DNA from: a virus
Taxonomy: Duplodnaviria; Heunggongvirae; Uroviricota; Caudoviricetes
Virus record (IMG/VR): IMGVR_UViG_2778261630_000006
Coordinates: 1 to 39,415 of that record
Strand: one strand, 5' to 3'
DNA length: 39,415 bases
Under the pieces are notes generated by a model. That model ran no database searches. It was given only the letters and a program-made list of their open reading frames with translations, and was not told the origin of the DNA. The position numbers were made by a program, and so were the translations under genes. This document shows positions 2,875-33,301 of this stretch, one piece after another. Numbering within the stretch: the stretch's first letter is position 1; every line of letters begins with the position of its first letter.

Positions 2875-3216
2875 ATTAGTCATCCTGTTTGAAGATTTAG
2901 ATATTGAAGAAAACGGAATGACTGCAGACAAAGATGCAATTGTTTTGAAAAATAACCTTCTATTCATTTAAAAACCATGTAACATGAACAAAACGATTAT
3001 TTTACAATACTCAAGAATCTTGATCAACAGGCATATTATTTATGCGCTTAATGCGTCACTTACAAAAATAAAAACAAGTAATACCTTTATTCCTATCGTC
3101 CATGATTTTTATTTTCAAACATTATTAAATAACAATTCCCATTTATAATATCTGTCATTTAATTTGCTCCAGATACAAGGAATCTCCGCAGCATGGCTAC
3201 GGTGAATTTTGGGCAT

Positions 3217-3258: not shown

Positions 3259-4137
3259 TCAGTAGTTATGTACTGAAGGAGGTAATTCTTTATTCTTAAG
3301 TCTCATCCATGCGGAAAGATTCGTTGGTCCGTCTGGCTCATTGATATCAACATCTCGTGTGTGATTGATTAAAACGTCTCTCGCCATTCCGATAACATAC
3401 GAGAATTCATGACCGTAGTCGTAGCATCTGCCGGAATAGTTCGATTGAATTTGTTTTAATGCCGGATACAATTCGCGGAATAATGCCTGTGAACGGTTGG
3501 CATAATCCCATAGCCATACAAGGCTGTTTGCTTCTTTTGCAGAAAGCTCGTTGGTTTTCTTATCTTGTTTGCCAATGAACTCACCTTCAAGCACTACCCT
3601 GTGGATGTACTCTACGGCCAGCGGGATTTGTTCAATTGAAAGTTCATCAATGCTGTCAATACCAAAACGCTGATGAACCATATTGTATGCATCGTCATAG
3701 CGAAGTCCTTTCTTTCCTACCAGCATGTTTACTGCATCGCGTAGCGGTGTTCTTTCCTCAACAGTGGTTTTCTTGCCTTTCACATACTTGCCATGTTTGC
3801 GAATTGAAGGCAGAACTTCTGCTGTTACCCACTTGCGGAATTTGTGCGGGACTGAACCTTTATTGACGGCATCGCGGCAGCGCAGAACCAATGTATACAT
3901 ACCTGACTCGCTCACAATGCTTAGATTCTGCTCACCACCAAGGGTGTAACTTAAAGTTACTCCCTTTTCATCGTCATCAAGTGCAGTAAGCGCCTTGCGT
4001 GAGTTAGTCAAAGCTAAAGCATCACAAACATCTTTAGCTACAAACCACGGCTCGCCGCACTTGTTAATTACGCGGATTTCACTGTCGCCAAATTTGAAGA
4101 TGGTGAAATCGTTTTGTGCCTTTGCTATACTTTTCAT
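3259..4137 (-). CDS. ant: Antirepressor Ant
   Basis: Position after arc as in P22 immI; recognisable antirepressor sequence. Start at internal ATG 4135-4137 with AGGAAAT ribosome-binding site. Confidence 0.85.
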
Positions 4138-25113: not shown

Positions 25114-25290
25114 TTATTTCCTCGCACGATGTCTTAGCCACCGGATATCCCACAGGTGAGCCGTGTAGTTGAAGGTTTTTACGTCAGATTCTTTTGGGAT
25201 TGTCTTGCGTTTATTTCTGGAGCGCTTCGTTGGAAGGTATTTGCAGTTTTCGCAGATGATGTCGGTGATACTTCGTCGCTGTCGTCTCAT
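25114..25290 (-). CDS. ninE: NinE
   Basis: [58 protein letters not shown] matches lambda NinE. Confidence 0.85.
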
Positions 25291-25814
25291 GCCGCCCTCC
25301 TGACGCCCTGCCCGATCGCCATCAATGCCGCTTTGGATACGGTAGTAAACATCCGTCGAGGACTGATGAACGGTCGCCAAATCAGCAGCATGGAGCCTTT
25401 GCTGTTTCCCTTCTTCTCCAGCCCTGTCGATGGTTCGATAAAATTAATCCGTCCATCAGTGATGATGCGAACTTCGTCAATACTCTCCAGAGCCTTGCTG
25501 AACCATCCGACAGACATATCCTCTGGCACAAGCATCACTACCGTCTGTCGCTGTTGTATGCACTGCTCAGCGGCTTTTTCCACCCACGGCCTGATATTGC
25601 TGTACGGTGGGTTATTCCAGATTGCACCGTGGCTTATCCACTCAGAATTGAGTGCGTCGTCGGCCTCAGTTAGCCAGTGAGCGCACAGAGCATTTTTGTC
25701 GCTCGCAGCTGAATCCAGCCAGAATCCAAACTCAATATCCAGCGCATCAAAAAGCCAAAGCGGCGTTTGCCAGCAGTCCTTGTCGTGTGCTGGCGTATTT
25801 GATTTGATAGTCAT
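25287..25814 (-). CDS. Phage-type DNA N6-adenine methyltransferase
   Basis: NPPY motif (IWNNPPYSN), about 175 aa, ATGA-coupled to ninB and ninE. Confidence 0.8.
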
Positions 25815-26251
25815 GCAGCCCGATCTCCCCATCGCGCTTTCCACTCCAGAGCCAGTCGCGCTTCGTCTGACCACTTAACGCCACGCTCTGTACCGAATGC
25901 CTGTATAAGCTCTAATAGCTCCGCAAATTCGCTTACACGCATTCTGCTGGTTGACTGGCCTATTACCACAAAGCCATTCCCGGCAAGGTTAGGAACAACG
26001 TCCTGCTGCTTTAATGCTGCTGTAAAAACGCACTTCCAGCTTTCTGCATCCAGCCAGCGACCATGCCATTCAACCTGACGAGAGACGTCACCAAGGCAAG
26101 CCCAAAGCTTTCGATTCTGGTCTAAGCTGCGGTTGCGTTCCTGAATGGTTACTACGATTGGTTTGGTTGGGTCTGGAAGAATTTGCTGTACCGCGTGAAT
26201 AGCGTTTTGCTGATGTGCTGGAGATCGAATTTCAAAGGTTAGTTTTTTCAT
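25811..26251 (-). CDS. ninB: NinB (recombination mediator)
   Basis: MKKLTFEIRSPAHQQNAIHAVQQILPDPTKPIVVTIQERNRSLDQNRKLW matches lambda NinB. Confidence 0.9.
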   Translation of the reverse strand: MKKLTFEIRSPAHQQNAIHAVQQILPDPTKPIVVTIQERNRSLDQNRKLWACLGDVSRQVEWHGRWLDAESWKCVFTAALKQQDVVPNLAGNGFVVIGQSTSRMRVSEFAELLELIQAFGTERGVKWSDEARLALEWKARWGDRAA

Positions 26252-30094: not shown

Positions 30095-30748
30095 ATGAAA
30101 TGGTATGAACTGGCTAGATCCAGAATGAAAGAGCTCGGCATAACTCAAGAGAAGTTAGCTGAAGAGCTTGGTATGACGCAGGGTGGAATTGGTCACTGGT
30201 TGCGCGGATCTCGTCATCCATCTCTTGACGAGATTGGTGTGGTGTTTAAATACCTTGGTATTGATAACGTCTCATTCAACCACGACGGTACATTTTCACC
30301 TGTTGGCGAATACTCATCTGCCCCCGTTAAAAAACAATATGAGTACCCTGTTTTTTCTCATGTTCAGGCCGGGATGTTCTCGCCTGAGCTTAGAACCTTT
30401 ACCAAAGGTGATGCGGAGAGATGGGTCAGCACAACCAAAAAAGCCAGTGATTGTGCGTTCTGGCTTGAAGTTGAAGGTAATTCCATGACCGCGCCAACAG
30501 GATCCAAGCCAAGCTTTCCTGACGGGATGTTAATTCTCGTTGACCCTGAGCAGGCTGTTGAGCCAGGTGATTTCTGCATAGCCAGACTTGGTGGTGACGA
30601 GTTTACCTTCAAGAAACTGATCAGGGATAGCGGTCAGGTGTTCCTACAGCCACTAAACCCGCAATATCCAATGATTCCATGCAATGATAGCTGTTCCGTA
30701 GTAGGGAAAGTTATCGCCAGCCAGTGGCCTGAAGAGACATTTAGTTAA
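30095..30748 (+). CDS. cI: CI repressor: novel HTH N-domain fused to a lambda-type C-terminal (S24/LexA-like) domain
   Basis: C-terminal half from [21 protein letters not shown] onward matches lambda CI including the SMTAPTGSK...DGM cleavage region; N-terminal 80 aa differ. Start 30095 (AAGGG ribosome-binding site) or 30089. Confidence 0.85.
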
Positions 30749-30778
30749 CAGCCTCACCACTCTAAAACACACAACAAT

Positions 30779-30808
30779 AACCCGACCTTAGCGTCGGGTT
30801 TTCTTTTT
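30779..30808 (+). terminator. Rho-independent terminator after cI
   Basis: AACCCGAC-CTTAGC-GTCGGGTT hairpin followed by TTCTTTTT. Confidence 0.7.
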
Positions 30809-30827
30809 CCAAAATATAAACCCATTA

Positions 30828-30903
30828 AATACAAAGTGTTATAAAAAACCAATTATATTTAGAACATTTTGTATTGACTCGATAAAGTACAAATCGTACT
30901 ATT
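30828..30903. promoter_or_regulatory. Left operator and pL
   Basis: Plus-strand TTGACT (30874-79), 17-bp spacer, TACTAT (30897-30902). Dyad AGTACAAATCGTACT (30886-30900) overlaps the -10; related site at 30828-30842. Confidence 0.55.
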
Positions 30904-30942
30904 TAGCCATCAGCAGGACGCACTGACCACCATGAAGGTGAC

Positions 30943-30972
30943 GCTCTTAAAAATTAAGCCCTGAAGAAGGGC
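30943..30972 (+). promoter_or_regulatory. nutL (boxA and boxB)
   Basis: CGCTCTTAAAAATTAAGCCCTGAAGAAGGGC, the lambda nutL arrangement. Confidence 0.75.
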
Positions 30973-31082
30973 AGCATTCAAAGCAGAAGGCTTTGAGTAG
31001 CGCGAAATGCAGCTGCAAGACAGCAACCGTGGAGATAAGCATCACGGCGCGTTACTCAAAGCTAACTGACAGGAGAATCCAG

Positions 31083-31409
31083 ATGGATGCACAAACACGC
31101 CGCCGCGAACGTCGCGCAGAGAAACAGGCTCAATGGAAAGCAGCAAATCCCCTGTTGGTTGGGGTAAGCGCAAAACCAGTTAACCGCCCTATTCTCTCGC
31201 TGAATCGCAAACCGAAATCACGAGTAGAAAGCGCACTGAATCCGATAGACCTTACGGTGCTGGCTGAATACCACGAACAGATTGAAAGCAACCTGCAACG
31301 TATTGAGCGCAAGAATCAGCGCACATGGTACAGCAAGCCACGCAGTGAAATGGGCGTGACTTGTGTTGGTCGCCAGAAAATGAAATTAGGCAGCAAACCA
31401 CTTATTTGA
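31083..31409 (+). CDS. N: Antiterminator N
   Basis: MDAQTRRRERRAEKQAQWKAANPLLVGVSAKPVNRPILSLNRKPKSRVESALNPIDLTVLAEYH... matches lambda N (Arg-rich motif). Confidence 0.95.
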   Translation: MDAQTRRRERRAEKQAQWKAANPLLVGVSAKPVNRPILSLNRKPKSRVESALNPIDLTVLAEYHEQIESNLQRIERKNQRTWYSKPRSEMGVTCVGRQKMKLGSKPLI

Positions 31410-31420
31410 GAGGAATTAAT

Positions 31421-32044
31421 ATGTCATCAATCCGCTTAACAACGAGTATGAAAGAGAAAATCGCTCGTAACGCTTTAATTAAATCTGGGGTTTTCACTGA
31501 GCTTGAAGAAGTAACAAAGTTAAAGAACCAGCTTGCACTTGACGCCAGAGTTGTTGTGTTTGGCGGTAAAAAGAAAACTGAGGAAGTGGATCAGTTATCA
31601 TCCAAGTTAATGGCTATAAGCGAAGAACTTGAAAAGCTGGGATGTTCATTTTACTCATGCGATGCCCGTTCAACTTCAATTTATCTGACTGTATCTGGCA
31701 GAAGGGTTGGCTGGTATTCATATGGGAAAGACGGCAACGGCGAAGATATATTGCTCCCTACTCCGACCAAAGATAAATGCATGTTTAGCGCAGAACACGA
31801 AATAACAAAAAGGTTTGATGAAATCTGCGCATTGCAACAAAAACTTGAAGCCAAGAAAAAGGATATCGAATCAAATGTATGGGCTGCTTTGAACTCAGTC
31901 ACAACAGTTAAGCGACTTATTGAAGTTTGGCCTGAAAGCAAAGAGTTGCTACCAAAAGAAGCAGATAAAGCAAGTACAGCACTTCCTGCTTTACGGGTAG
32001 AAGATTTGAATAAGATGATTGGACTTCCTTCCGAGGTCGCATAA
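31421..32044 (+). CDS. Hypothetical protein (207 aa) immediately downstream of N; AT-rich accessory gene
   Basis: GAGAGGA ribosome-binding site and ATG 12 nt after the N stop. No family recognised. Confidence 0.6.
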   Translation: MSSIRLTTSMKEKIARNALIKSGVFTELEEVTKLKNQLALDARVVVFGGKKKTEEVDQLSSKLMAISEELEKLGCSFYSCDARSTSIYLTVSGRRVGWYSYGKDGNGEDILLPTPTKDKCMFSAEHEITKRFDEICALQQKLEAKKKDIESNVWAALNSVTTVKRLIEVWPESKELLPKEADKASTALPALRVEDLNKMIGLPSEVA

Positions 32045-32086
32045 TCGTCCTTTATTTTTGGCATAAACAACAGAATAAACACTGCA

Positions 32087-32118
32087 CTGTGTATTCATTC
32101 CAACGAGTGAATACACGG
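32087..32118 (+). promoter_or_regulatory. Inverted repeat (9-11 bp stem, 10-nt loop) in the 3' UTR of the 207-aa gene
   Basis: GTGTATTCA ... TGAATACAC; no T-run follows. Confidence 0.35.
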
Positions 32119-32179
32119 AGCAATGTCGCTCGTAACTAAACAGGAGCCGACTTGTTCTGATTATTGGAAATCTTCTTTG

Positions 32180-32205
32180 CCCTCCGATGTGAGGGCCTTT
32201 TTATA
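32180..32205 (+). terminator. Rho-independent terminator upstream of cIII
   Basis: GCCCTC-CGATGT-GAGGGC hairpin followed by CTTTTTAT. Confidence 0.65.
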
Positions 32206-32268
32206 TGCATACCAATAACGCTTCACTCGAGGCGTTTTCGTTATGCAATCAAACAGAAGGAGCATCCT

Positions 32269-32439
32269 ATGCAACAGTTCGCTATTGCAGGGGCGGCATC
32301 GGTTCGCCCTTTCAACCCGATTTTATCGGTGCAGCATTCACGAAAAAACATTTTAACCGGAGCAGACTTTAAACAACCAAGAATGAAAAGCTTGCTCGAA
32401 AAGATTTGGGATATTTTGAAACAACAAGGCCGTCCATGA
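32269..32439 (+). CDS. cIII: CIII-like protein
   Basis: MQQFAIAG...SLLEKIWDILKQQGRP resembles lambda CIII. GAAGGAG ribosome-binding site. Confidence 0.65.
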   Translation: MQQFAIAGAASVRPFNPILSVQHSRKNILTGADFKQPRMKSLLEKIWDILKQQGRP

Positions 32440-32594
32440 GTTTTACAGATAACTGGTCAGACGAAGAATTCATTCGTCAGATGAAAGAATTAATCGGTAA
32501 CGAAGGAGATATTCATGTCACTTGCAACCACAGTGAAGGAGAGCAAGTTACAGAGACGCATGTACACGCAGAAAGCTCTCTGGTATCGCCATAA
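32436..32594 (+). CDS. Small ORF (52 aa), kil-like by position
   Basis: ATGA overlap with the cIII stop; acidic small protein. Identity not established. Confidence 0.35.
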   Translation: MSFTDNWSDEEFIRQMKELIGNEGDIHVTCNHSEGEQVTETHVHAESSLVSP

Positions 32595-32695
32595 TGGCGA
32601 CCGCGAAGGAATGCGGGTATGTCTTAATTTGTCCCGAGTCGAAGTATTAAATCAGCGTTATTTCCTTGGGTCATGTCCATTCTGAGAACAATCAT

Positions 32696-33301
32696 ATGAG
32701 CAAAGAATTTTACGCAAGACTGGCAGCTATTCAGGAGAATCTGAACGCGCCAAAGAATCAGTACAACTCATTCGGTAAATATAAATACAGAAGCTGCGAA
32801 GATATTCTTGAAGGCGTTAAGCCGTTACTGAATGGCCTGTTTTTATCAATCAGCGATGAAGTTGTGTTGATTGGTGATCGGTATTATGTGAAAGCCACGG
32901 CAACTATTACCGATGGCGAAAACAGTCATACGGCAACCGCTCTTGCACGAGAGGAAGAAAGCAAGAAAGGAATGGATTCTGCACAAGTTACGGGAGCTAC
33001 AAGCTCTTATGCACGCAAGTATTGCCTCAATGGTTTGTTCGGCATTGATGATGCGAAAGATGCAGATACCGACGAGCATAAACATCAGCAGAACGCAGCA
33101 GCAAAGCAATCAAAACCATCACCTACACCTGAACAGGTTCTAAAAGCATTCACTGACGCAGCAATGCAGAAAAACACCGTAGAAGAGCTTAAACAGGCGT
33201 TCGCCAAAGCGTGGAAGATGCTCGAAGGTACACCGGAGCAGCACAAAGCGCAGGACGTTTACAACATCAGACGAGACGAATTAGAAGGGGCAACTGCTTA
33301 A
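32696..33301 (+). CDS. erf: Erf single-strand annealing protein
   Basis: MSKEFYARLAAIQENLNAPKNQYNSFGKYKYRSCEDILEGVKPLL... matches P22 Erf. Confidence 0.92.
   Translation: MSKEFYARLAAIQENLNAPKNQYNSFGKYKYRSCEDILEGVKPLLNGLFLSISDEVVLIGDRYYVKATATITDGENSHTATALAREEESKKGMDSAQVTGATSSYARKYCLNGLFGIDDAKDADTDEHKHQQNAAAKQSKPSPTPEQVLKAFTDAAMQKNTVEELKQAFAKAWKMLEGTPEQHKAQDVYNIRRDELEGATA

Follow-up and report, generated by a model that had tools for sequence, protein, structure and literature searches.

The window considered here is the whole 39,415-nt stretch of the tailed virus record IMGVR_UViG_2778261630_000006 (Caudoviricetes), and its early leftward region carries the following features:

30874-30902, + strand: pL-like early leftward promoter (TTGACT-17-TACTAT), from promoter prediction; pL is annotated in the HK542 record.
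30942-30972, + strand: nutL, with boxA CGCTCTTA(A) at 30942-30950 and boxB GCCCTGAAGAAGGGC at 30958-30972; the records of HK542 and mEp235 mark corresponding features.
31083-31409, + strand: lambda-type antiterminator N, 108 aa, near-identical to lambda N to ~31339.
31329-31409, + strand: left flank of the cargo slot, a variant of the N 3' end, from locus comparison.
31410-31413, + strand: Shine-Dalgarno GAGG, immediately preceded by the N stop codon and 7 nt 5' of the Nmad5-gene ATG.
31421-32044, + strand: Nmad5-family gene, the slot cargo, 207 aa, from Pfam PF18757, PHROG 1965, DNA identity to Kapi1_018 and an AF2 model.
32049-32206, + strand: right flank of the slot, equivalent to the backbone between ral and ea10 in lambda (34,080-33,923; 96% identity).
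32087-32118, + strand: conserved hairpin with a 14-bp stem (lambda 34,042-34,011), directly 5' of the PreS region.
32119-32205, + strand: predicted PreS/LPR1 sRNA homologue, 82/87 identical to lambda 34,010-33,924, its 5' end placed from the published size.
32179-32205, + strand: intrinsic terminator equivalent to lambda tL2a, forming the PreS 3' end; stem 32179-32196 plus CTTTTTATAT.
32217-32245, + strand: second terminator-like hairpin (predicted at 32217-32236), a homologue of the hairpin that lies between ea10 and cIII in lambda; absent from the first-pass annotation of this DNA.
32269-32439, + strand: cIII-like gene, 56 aa; homologues are annotated cIII in HK542 and mEp235.

The frame at the centre of this region runs from an ATG at 31421 to a stop codon at 32042-32044, inside a longer TTG-started ORF (31361-32044). 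The first-pass annotation had placed this ORF and its ribosome-binding site, as well as the inverted repeat at 32087-32118 and the terminator, where they were found here; the gap that it described after a lambda-type N is also present, at 11 nt rather than 12, with N ending at 31409. The ORF is indeed AT-rich, with a GC content of 40.5%; the window as a whole has 47.1% and N has 50.2%. The statement that its product has no recognisable motifs could not be upheld: the protein matches PF18757 (Nmad5) over the full length of the model (positions 1-206 of 206; E 1.3e-70; 238 bits against a cut-off of 27) and PHROG 1965 (E 2.9e-81), and close homologues carry the name Nmad5 in RefSeq, a family name that reportedly stems from Iyer et al. 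2013. At the DNA level the gene is 100% identical to Kapi1_018 of phage vB_EcoP_Kapi1 and, judging by a dN/dS of ~0.29 across 63 E. coli alleles, is still under purifying selection. On these matches, 31421-32044 codes for a full-length PF18757 protein; the gene is real and its family already catalogued. That family is made up of 2261 cluster representatives (50% identity) and extends over both temperate and lytic phages from a wide range of Proteobacteria; a genome scan of species representatives returned four Nmad5 loci, and a very diverse Nmad5 alignment used as protein query added little extra diversity. An antisense ORF of 133 aa (31681-32082), annotated in the HK542 record, is regarded as spurious because its length is not kept in homologues, which are stop-free for 70-124 aa only.

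The promoter-proximal part of the operon is almost entirely that of lambda: the transcript start region (30908-30995) corresponds to lambda 35,583-35,496 at 100% identity, and N departs from lambda N in its last ~23 codons, which form a diverged variant. On the + strand, no intrinsic terminator was predicted from pL (30874) to 32179, and no promoter-like site between 30902 and 32442. Given that no intrinsic terminator separates pL from the Nmad5 gene, its expression would be coupled to that of N, without the dependence on antitermination that had earlier been proposed. Likewise, it is expected to be silent under repressor because no promoter-like site follows pL; the cI terminator (30779-30800) stands between the repressor transcript and the gene. 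Because the Nmad5 gene begins 11 nt after N, with a good ribosome-binding site, and the first intrinsic terminator predicted after pL is tL2a, the two genes probably share one N-independent transcript. The position of the gene in other temperate phages is in line with early, prophage-silent expression: it is always promoter-proximal, and in seven independent cases (Cronobacter, Klebsiella, Providencia, Serratia, Pantoea and two from metagenomes) it lies one to two genes beyond a repressor or repressor-like gene and in the same orientation. Such an immediate-early pL transcript would be made in the lytic pathway only, would carry both N and the Nmad5 gene, and would end in the PreS sRNA, with the proviso that Rho-dependent termination in the N-to-Nmad5 gap may still occur. 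Immediate-early timing is not universal, because in Kapi1 and mEp235 the Nmad5 gene lies 3' of an apparent terminator following nun. The rest of the pL operon in the window consists of Erf, Abc2, Ea22, DUF551 and Int only; the 56-aa cIII-like protein gave no Pfam match.

The elements 3' of the gene had been read as the hairpin of its 3' UTR and as a terminator of its own. By sequence comparison, the hairpin, the PreS region and tL2a are instead lambda ral-ea10 backbone, common to phages with quite different cargo, and a 225-nt query (32045-32269) that includes this right flank matches 372 phage records. The hairpin arms, CUGUGUAUUCAUUC and GAGUGAAUACACGG, enclose a 4-nt loop and contain two G-U pairs, which form in + strand RNA only; an inverted repeat lacking a T-run had been reported, and the 14-bp stem found here is indeed followed by none. 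EF120458 labels the position of the left arm 'boundary sequence 4'. The 206-nt tail 3' of the Nmad5 gene has a folding z of -4.6; 74 of 81 hairpin copies are identical and the variants differ by single changes, leaving covariation with no signal to read. The lambda hairpin between ea10 and cIII, to which the second terminator-like hairpin corresponds, presumably marks the tL2b position. Homology to lambda identifies 32119-32205 as a predicted PreS/LPR1 homologue. In lambda, and shown there only, this is an Hfq-dependent RNA of ~88 nt, processed to ~68 nt and expressed in the lytic cycle, which boosts DnaN and whose 3' end has been equated with terminator tL2a (bioRxiv 10.1101/2024.10.31.621285). 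The window terminator is homologous to the sole strong intrinsic terminator between lambda ral and ea10, and across loci terminators of this type have a constant stem and a variable loop. Rfam, searched with 30700-32700, matched no family to the PreS segment; a minus-strand ToxT-thermometer hit (28 bits against a cut-off of 81) was taken as chance.

Homology to lambda breaks off at ~31340 and picks up again at 32049, and the same two flanks enclose other cargo elsewhere: Ral (L018), a PHROG 2471 gene (L019, L021), DUF7446 with Y8K6 (L020), a PHROG 1244 gene on the minus strand (720R6) and a gene for 147 aa (CL707). Most of these other occupants have no assigned function. The left flank persists 5' of Nmad5 in Kapi1 and mEp235, where it comes after annotated HK620-type N and nun-like genes; among IMG/VR loci from which the 5' part of lambda-type N is missing, 48 of 80 keep it. 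Of 5426 complete E. coli genomes, 2239 match the query somewhere, chiefly in the 3' backbone segment; the Nmad5 gene itself occurs in ~201 of the 5426 (~4%), is patchy even in near-identical phages with the same recombination genes, and is IS-disrupted in Stx2a phages. The expectation that it would prove accessory was borne out: comparison of lambdoid genomes found it present or absent between N and the PreS segment, and not a conserved core gene. By locus comparison it is swappable, dispensable cargo, flanked on the left by the 3' end of lambda-type N and on the right by the hairpin-PreS-tL2a segment. Assignment to the slot of ral and sieB agrees with this comparison, whilst ea10, which had been named alongside them, belongs to a second slot after tL2a, bounded by the second hairpin and empty in the window. 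The lambda occupant of the N-to-PreS slot is assumed here to include sieB, which is absent from the lambda feature table examined. Taken together, slot-and-cargo anatomy and immediate-early expression form an account that we consider very likely to be correct.

The protein itself is predicted to be helical (AF2, pLDDT 84); residue 5 is extended, and helices span 8-22 and 24-47. Sequence and structure searches of the PDB found no relative, and matches in Pfam, PHROGs and BFVD were to Nmad5 only, with no similarity to a proven anti-defence inhibitor; the remote-homology and structure comparison suggested in the first-pass annotation likewise gave no homology to a characterised housekeeping protein. 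Across 138 diverse members, 16 positions are invariant or near-invariant, mostly hydrophobic, Gly or Pro, and no His/Asp/Cys/Ser/Lys constellation occurs among them. The window protein has all of these family-wide positions (R5, I14, A18, R43, G48, G93, T162, L166, W170, P171, E172, L176, P178, L196, N197 and G201), which fall largely into a conserved N-terminal segment, RLT..I..NA..K.G, and a conserved C-terminal module, TxKRLIxxWPE...LPAxxVxxLNxxIGLP. Neither an enzyme-like fold nor catalytic-looking conserved residues were seen, and a literature search for a nucleotide-modifying biochemical activity of Nmad5 found none.

We tentatively prefer to see Nmad5 as a non-enzymatic early counter-defence or host-takeover protein, a reading whose chances we put at somewhat less than even. 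It would be a helical binding protein, not an enzyme, which very early in infection would dock onto a host or host-defence component and so neutralise a barrier or otherwise condition the cell for phage DNA, in a role functionally analogous to that of slot-mates such as Ral. The counter-defence element draws by analogy on slot position, in effect guilt by location. Genetic data come from a distant homologue: in Dhillonvirus SM_S22, the Nmad5 substitution K296E gives escape from Tmn, deletion of the gene gives no escape, and the gene was toxic to clone (PMC11846954). SM_S22 K296 aligns with R165 of the window protein, within the motif TxK[KR]LIxxWPE, the best conserved of that protein. A gain-of-function point mutant alongside a deletion without effect makes for an odd data set. 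Scans of the protein with PADLOC, whose models represent defence and not anti-defence, and with NCBIfam gave no match, nor did the accessory-gene library supplements of Silas et al.; the validated 'NMAD' system of DefensePredictor is Nmad2, not Nmad5. A bolder and rather doubtful version holds that Nmad5 is misnamed, and is a widespread non-enzymatic immediate-early effector that binds a conserved host or immune component via its C-terminal WPE / LNxxIGLP module; in lambdoid phages it would take turns with Ral in a slot between two flanks, the right one of which also serves as the PreS gene. Candidate partners for such an effector are Tmn-type KAP NTPases, or whatever those monitor.

Other readings arise from the company that homologues keep. 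Were Nmad5 an accessory protein of replication or recombination, aiding early DNA metabolism by attaching to DNA or to a part of the replisome or recombination apparatus, the Erf and Abc2 genes downstream in the same operon would be fitting neighbours, as would PreS, immediately 3', with its effect on DnaN. Replication genes also surround homologues elsewhere: in N4-like Pollock, Nmad5 adjoins exonuclease, primase and Sak4; it precedes rep O in Vibrio phage Athena1, follows the helicase-primase in eiAU, and in Providencia-type prophages comes before a DUF2800 nuclease, an Enc34 ssDNA-binding protein and Pol A. We nevertheless think this unlikely: the gene is dispensable and patchy among phages that share its recombination neighbours, some homologues lie among head or tail genes, PreS is tied to the slot and not to its Nmad5 cargo, and the protein resembles no known DNA-metabolism fold. 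The family name itself points to an accessory factor of DNA modification, which would target or scaffold a base-modifying enzyme, Dam-type or a host partner, on phage DNA. In Yuavirus SN1/M6-like phages a homologue does sit within a thymidine hypermodification cassette, beside aGPT-Pplase1, 5-hmdU kinase and hydroxymethylase and with thymidylate synthase also present; in Pollock, Nmad5 follows thymidylate synthase; in one related metagenomic phage, genes for Dam and a C5 methylase lie close by; and the window encodes a PF05869 Dam methyltransferase (25290-25874). This gene, however, lies 5.5 kb off in the nin region of the other early operon, and the window pL operon contains no base-modification gene. 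The association with Nmad5 does hold in Yuavirus SN1; most Nmad5 contexts are without any modification gene. Exchange of the gene with Ral and small unknown genes, without a travelling partner, and the want of enzyme-like fold and conserved catalytic residues speak against it further, and we rate a modification role as quite unlikely.

Gene regulation offers another possibility, in which the N-terminal RLTxxxKxxIxxNAxxKxG would form the ribbon-helix-helix (RHH) of a dimeric DNA-binding protein controlling host or phage genes early. The N-terminal 25 residues rank among the best-conserved of the family and by eye resemble the beta-alphaA-G-alphaB arrangement seen in Arc/CopG proteins; the predicted extended residue and two helices fall in or near this stretch. 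When 60 N-terminal segments were searched as a profile against PDB sequences, no RHH protein came up, and in Pfam scans a single one of these segments had a weak ParD match, with no RHH family recurring. We hold this reading to be improbable. It is very improbable, finally, that Nmad5 shields the lysogen as a SieB- or Nun-like superinfection-exclusion or prophage defence gene. The lambda slot presumably holds sieB, one Stx phage record annotates a 'superinfection exclusion protein' under the matching segment, and Nmad5 comes after a nun-like gene in Kapi1 and mEp235. Against such a role, the absence of a promoter-like site from pL to the gene would keep it silent under repressor, PADLOC gave no match, and phages that are strictly lytic (N4-like, Dhillonvirus, Yuavirus) carry homologues too.

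For 31421-32205 of the window, the result is chiefly corrective, the gene being an ordinary catalogued one and its 3' elements likewise already catalogued. Beyond the window, two conserved flanks mark an exchange site for early accessory genes of lambdoid phages, a slot that could be mined for new anti-defence genes. Nmad5 is a family without known activity; if the counter-defence or host-takeover role is true, it would provide a role for the whole family and would also explain the Tmn-escape genetics.

Set beside known systems, the window gene has its nearest positional counterpart in lambda Ral, a proven restriction-alleviation protein. The ral gene likewise stands between N and the hairpin-PreS-tL2a segment, with the same direction of transcription and early expression from pL, a timing that for Nmad5 is predicted. 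At 66 aa, Ral has no sequence or predicted-fold similarity to Nmad5, and the analogy is one of position only. SM_S22 CDS6 has the same Pfam domain as the window protein, but is 334 aa long with an 80-aa N-terminal extension, is only 31% identical over residues 104-203, and is encoded on the opposite strand within the head-gene cluster of a lytic phage. The PreS segments of lambda and the window both end in a GC-rich terminator hairpin and U-tail; that of the window is substituted at two positions of the terminator loop and at three of the tail, and has Nmad5 upstream where lambda has ral, with ea10 missing downstream. Closest of all are Kapi1_018, HK542 gp33, mEp235 gp37 and HK244 orf01, which share the full-length HMM match common to the family. 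Kapi1 differs in its flank, an HK620-type N with a nun-like gene where the window has lambda-type N, whilst the HK542, mEp235 and Stx1-phage genes are ~95-96% identical to the window gene in DNA and 92-94% in protein, and HK542 keeps the gene order N-Nmad5-cIII-Erf of the window.

The 207-aa protein encoded directly downstream of the lambda-type N gene matches Pfam PF18757 (Nmad5, 'nucleotide modification associated domain 5') across the entire model (E 1.3e-70), and also matches PHROG 1965 (unknown function); searches of NCBIfam and PADLOC returned no match. The first-pass annotation, which had seen no recognisable motifs in this ORF, is thus corrected, whilst the ORF, ribosome-binding site, AT-richness (GC 40.5% in the ORF vs 47.1% in the window and 50.2% in N), inverted repeat and terminator are present as it described them, with a gap of 11 nt between the end of N (31409) and the Nmad5 ATG. 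The principal features are:

30874-30902, + strand: early leftward promoter pL, lambda-like, as are the transcript start region and nutL
31410-31413, + strand: GAGG ahead of the Nmad5 ATG
31421-32044, + strand: Nmad5 ORF, 207 codons, ATG at 31421
32087-32118, + strand: inverted repeat with 14-bp stem, 4-nt loop and two G-U pairs
32179-32196 plus T-run, + strand: intrinsic terminator
32217-32236, + strand: second terminator-like hairpin

At the DNA level the gene matches Kapi1_018 of phage vB_EcoP_Kapi1 with 100% identity, and the record of that phage already names the Nmad5 motif; identity to genes of HK542, HK244, mEp235 and Stx1 phages is 95–96%. In RefSeq, homologues from E. coli go by the name 'Nmad5 family putative nucleotide modification protein'. 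The family comprises 2261 representatives of 50%-identity clusters (E ≤ 1e-3), and among the best 150 of these by score nearly all are stand-alone proteins of ~200 aa. A dN/dS of ~0.29 among 63 E. coli alleles indicates a functional protein under moderate constraint. An antisense 133-aa ORF (31681-32082, − strand) covers the 3' two-thirds of the gene and appears in the HK542 immunity-region record as hypothetical protein HK542c101; it is probably spurious, its length varying in homologues of other genera. A weak Rfam match to the ToxT 5' UTR thermometer inside the ORF (31749-31827, − strand; 28 bits vs a gathering score of 81, E 0.05) was taken as chance. Judged by its homologies, the window is a mosaic of P22-like structural genes (~96% identical to the closest phages, HZ41, APC_JM3.2 and IME10), an HK542-like early-left region (30750-32700), with the N-Nmad5-cIII-Erf order of HK542, and a Kapi1-identical Nmad5 gene. 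It differs from Kapi1 in the Nmad5 flanks and is therefore not that phage, and none of the phage records reaches 80% coverage of window 1-25000.

The hairpin and terminator downstream, previously read as the gene's own 3' UTR, belong instead to lambda backbone: window 32049-32206 has 96% aligned identity to lambda 34,080-33,923 (the ral-ea10 intergenic region), and the counterpart of 32207-32292 is lambda 33,522-33,443, which takes in the ea10-cIII intergenic region together with the start of cIII. The hairpin has its counterpart at lambda 34,042-34,011, and the 87 nt 3' of it match lambda 34,010-33,924 at 82 positions. As a recent preprint shows (10.1101/2024.10.31.621285), the corresponding lambda segment encodes LPR1/PreS, an Hfq-dependent sRNA of ~88 nt that is processed to ~68 nt, has terminator tL2a as its 3' end, is restricted to lytic growth and enhances dnaN translation. 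Going by this published size, the PreS 5' end would fall at the hairpin's 3' foot, 88 nt back from the T-run. In the lambda ral-ea10 interval tL2a is the only strong intrinsic terminator. The hairpin at 32217-32236 is homologous to that between lambda ea10 and cIII, the tL2b position.

Of 81 copies of the 32087-32118 hairpin 74 are identical, too little variation for a covariation test, and tL2a-type terminators keep a constant stem around a variable loop. The hairpin's two G-U pairs would become A-C mismatches in RNA of the opposite strand and so pair in the + RNA only, in keeping with a function in the pL transcript; the hairpin may mark the PreS 5' end or stabilise upstream mRNA. Candidate roles for this almost invariant phage element, which abuts the putative PreS 5' end, are processing signal, 3' stabiliser of upstream mRNA and recombination boundary. 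In EF120458, the HK542 GenBank record of Degnan et al., 'boundary sequence 4' is annotated at the place of its left arm. The 3' elements are far commoner than the Nmad5 gene: some part of query 31329-32210, mostly the 3' backbone segment, occurs in 2239 of 5426 complete E. coli genomes, and at least 80% of it, i.e. the gene itself, in only 201. By its place in this widely matched segment, the hairpin is probably conserved in many E. coli genomes. A 225-nt query (32045-32269) that takes in the backbone segment has matches in 372 phage records, lambda derivatives and 933W among them.

Nmad5 occupies a cargo slot with two conserved flanks. The N gene follows that of lambda almost perfectly to ~31339, beyond which identity falls, the last ~23 codons being variant, and lambda homology resumes at 32049; in other phages, different cargo sits between the same left flank (from ~31329) and right flank:

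L018 (phage locus): Ral
L019 and L021 (phage loci): 83-aa PHROG 2471 protein, either by itself or with two further small genes
L020 (phage locus): DUF7446, an XkdD/Y8K6-family protein and another
vB_EcoP-720R6: 163-aa PHROG 1244 gene, minus strand
CL707 (L116 1-1811): 147-aa gene after N
Lambda: region containing ral and sieB

In CL707 an IS10 lies ~50 nt into the conserved right flank and severs the hairpin/PreS region. Shared flanks around swapped cargo, together with the N remnants described next, are the hallmark of cassettes exchanged through recombination in the conserved flanks. In Kapi1 and mEp235, where N is of HK620 type and a nun-like gene is present, a ~80-nt remnant of a lambda-type N 3' end nevertheless persists directly 5' of Nmad5 and 3' of the annotated N and nun genes (Kapi1, L001 ~3900-3990; mEp235, L002 ~2910-3000; window equivalent 31329-31409). 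This remnant is a fossil of the recombination that delivered the Nmad5 cassette, and explains why the Kapi1 annotation has a longer ORF there, of 684 nt and with a TTG start. Among 80 IMG/VR loci, 18 have a full lambda-type N, 48 the remnant only and 14 neither. A second cargo slot, empty in the window, lies directly after the tL2a stem (32197-32216); it holds ea10 in lambda (33,904-33,536), an 82-aa PHROG 14587 'anti-restriction protein' in Kapi1 (L001 4799-5047), and inserts of ~280-1000 bp in IMG/VR loci. In Stx2a-converting phages an IS3-family element (transposase ORFs of 108 and 296 aa) splits Nmad5 after ~codon 36 (Stx2_EH1965, L114 191-1500), leaving a 152-aa GTG-started remnant, which shows that phages can dispense with the gene. 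Databases commonly contain truncated 'Nmad5' proteins of 152-182 aa.

Expression had been expected to depend on N antitermination. Window 30908-30995 is 100% identical to lambda, and the + strand from pL to 32179 holds no predicted intrinsic terminator and no promoter-like site, which would place Nmad5 on an N-independent transcript shared with N. The gene should accordingly not depend on antitermination, Rho-dependent termination lying outside the prediction, and no expression is expected in lysogens. In Kapi1 and mEp235 a GC-stem-plus-T-run, a terminator by eye, precedes the N remnant, so timing can differ between phages.

We infer, tentatively and at every step of the mechanism, that Nmad5 is an immediate-early accessory cargo gene whose product would bind rather than catalyse, most likely targeting a host or host-defence component. 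This reading draws on its promoter-proximal place across genera, interchange with Ral, lack of enzyme features, dispensability and Tmn genetics. In temperate contexts, covering two metagenomic phages and prophages of Cronobacter, Klebsiella, Providencia, Serratia and Pantoea, Nmad5 is invariably the first or second gene downstream of a repressor or repressor-like gene and shares its strand. The AlphaFold2 model (24-sequence alignment; pLDDT 84, pTM 0.71) is confident and predicts three long helices together with a beta-hairpin (86-100), a further long helix (127-158) and short helices; the linker at 182-192 is disordered, and the C-terminal helix is short. Positions invariant or near-invariant across 138 diverse members (R5, I14, A18, R43, G48 and G93 in the first half; T162, L166, W170, P171, E172, L176, P178, L196, N197 and G201 towards the C-terminus) are mainly of a structural kind, and no set among them looks catalytic. 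In the literature searched, experimental data came only from a Dhillonvirus study, in which Nmad5 K296E (K216E in a shorter homologue) let phage escape Tmn defence, deletion did not, and the wild-type gene was uncloneable, apparently through toxicity (PMC11846954). K296 aligns with R165 of the window-encoded protein, in the most conserved motif, TVKRLIEVWPE.

Lytic-phage contexts vary. A role as a replication or recombination helper, which we consider unlikely, would suit the replication-module settings in N4-like Pollock (thymidylate synthase on one side, exonuclease/primase on the other) and eiAU (after helicase-primase); small early or tail genes surround Nmad5 in Vibrio phages, and in Dhillonvirus it lies antisense inside head genes. 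Somewhat less probable still is an accessory factor for DNA modification, to which only the family name and a place within the thymidine-hypermodification cassette of Yuavirus SN1 point; the window's pL operon holds no modification genes. A PF05869 Dam-type N6-adenine methyltransferase in the nin region, adjoining NinB (25290-25874, − strand), is the only DNA-modification enzyme among the window genes scanned. The family-wide N-terminal motif M-T-R-L-T-x3-K-x2-I-x2-N-A-x2-K-x-G (residues 1-25; 31421-31495) looks like the strand-helix-Gly turn of ribbon-helix-helix proteins; this fit by eye would suit a DNA-binding regulator of that type, but profile searches were negative, and we regard such a regulator as improbable. 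An exclusion gene expressed from the prophage seems highly implausible, given the missing promoter and the homologues in lytic phages. In lambdoid contexts the 'nucleotide modification' label has little support. Earlier work has already described the Nmad5 gene and the family to which it is assigned, as well as terminator tL2a and the PreS sRNA; to these the present analysis adds, modestly, a correction of how the 3' elements and the dependence on N had been read, and a description of the two-flank slot.
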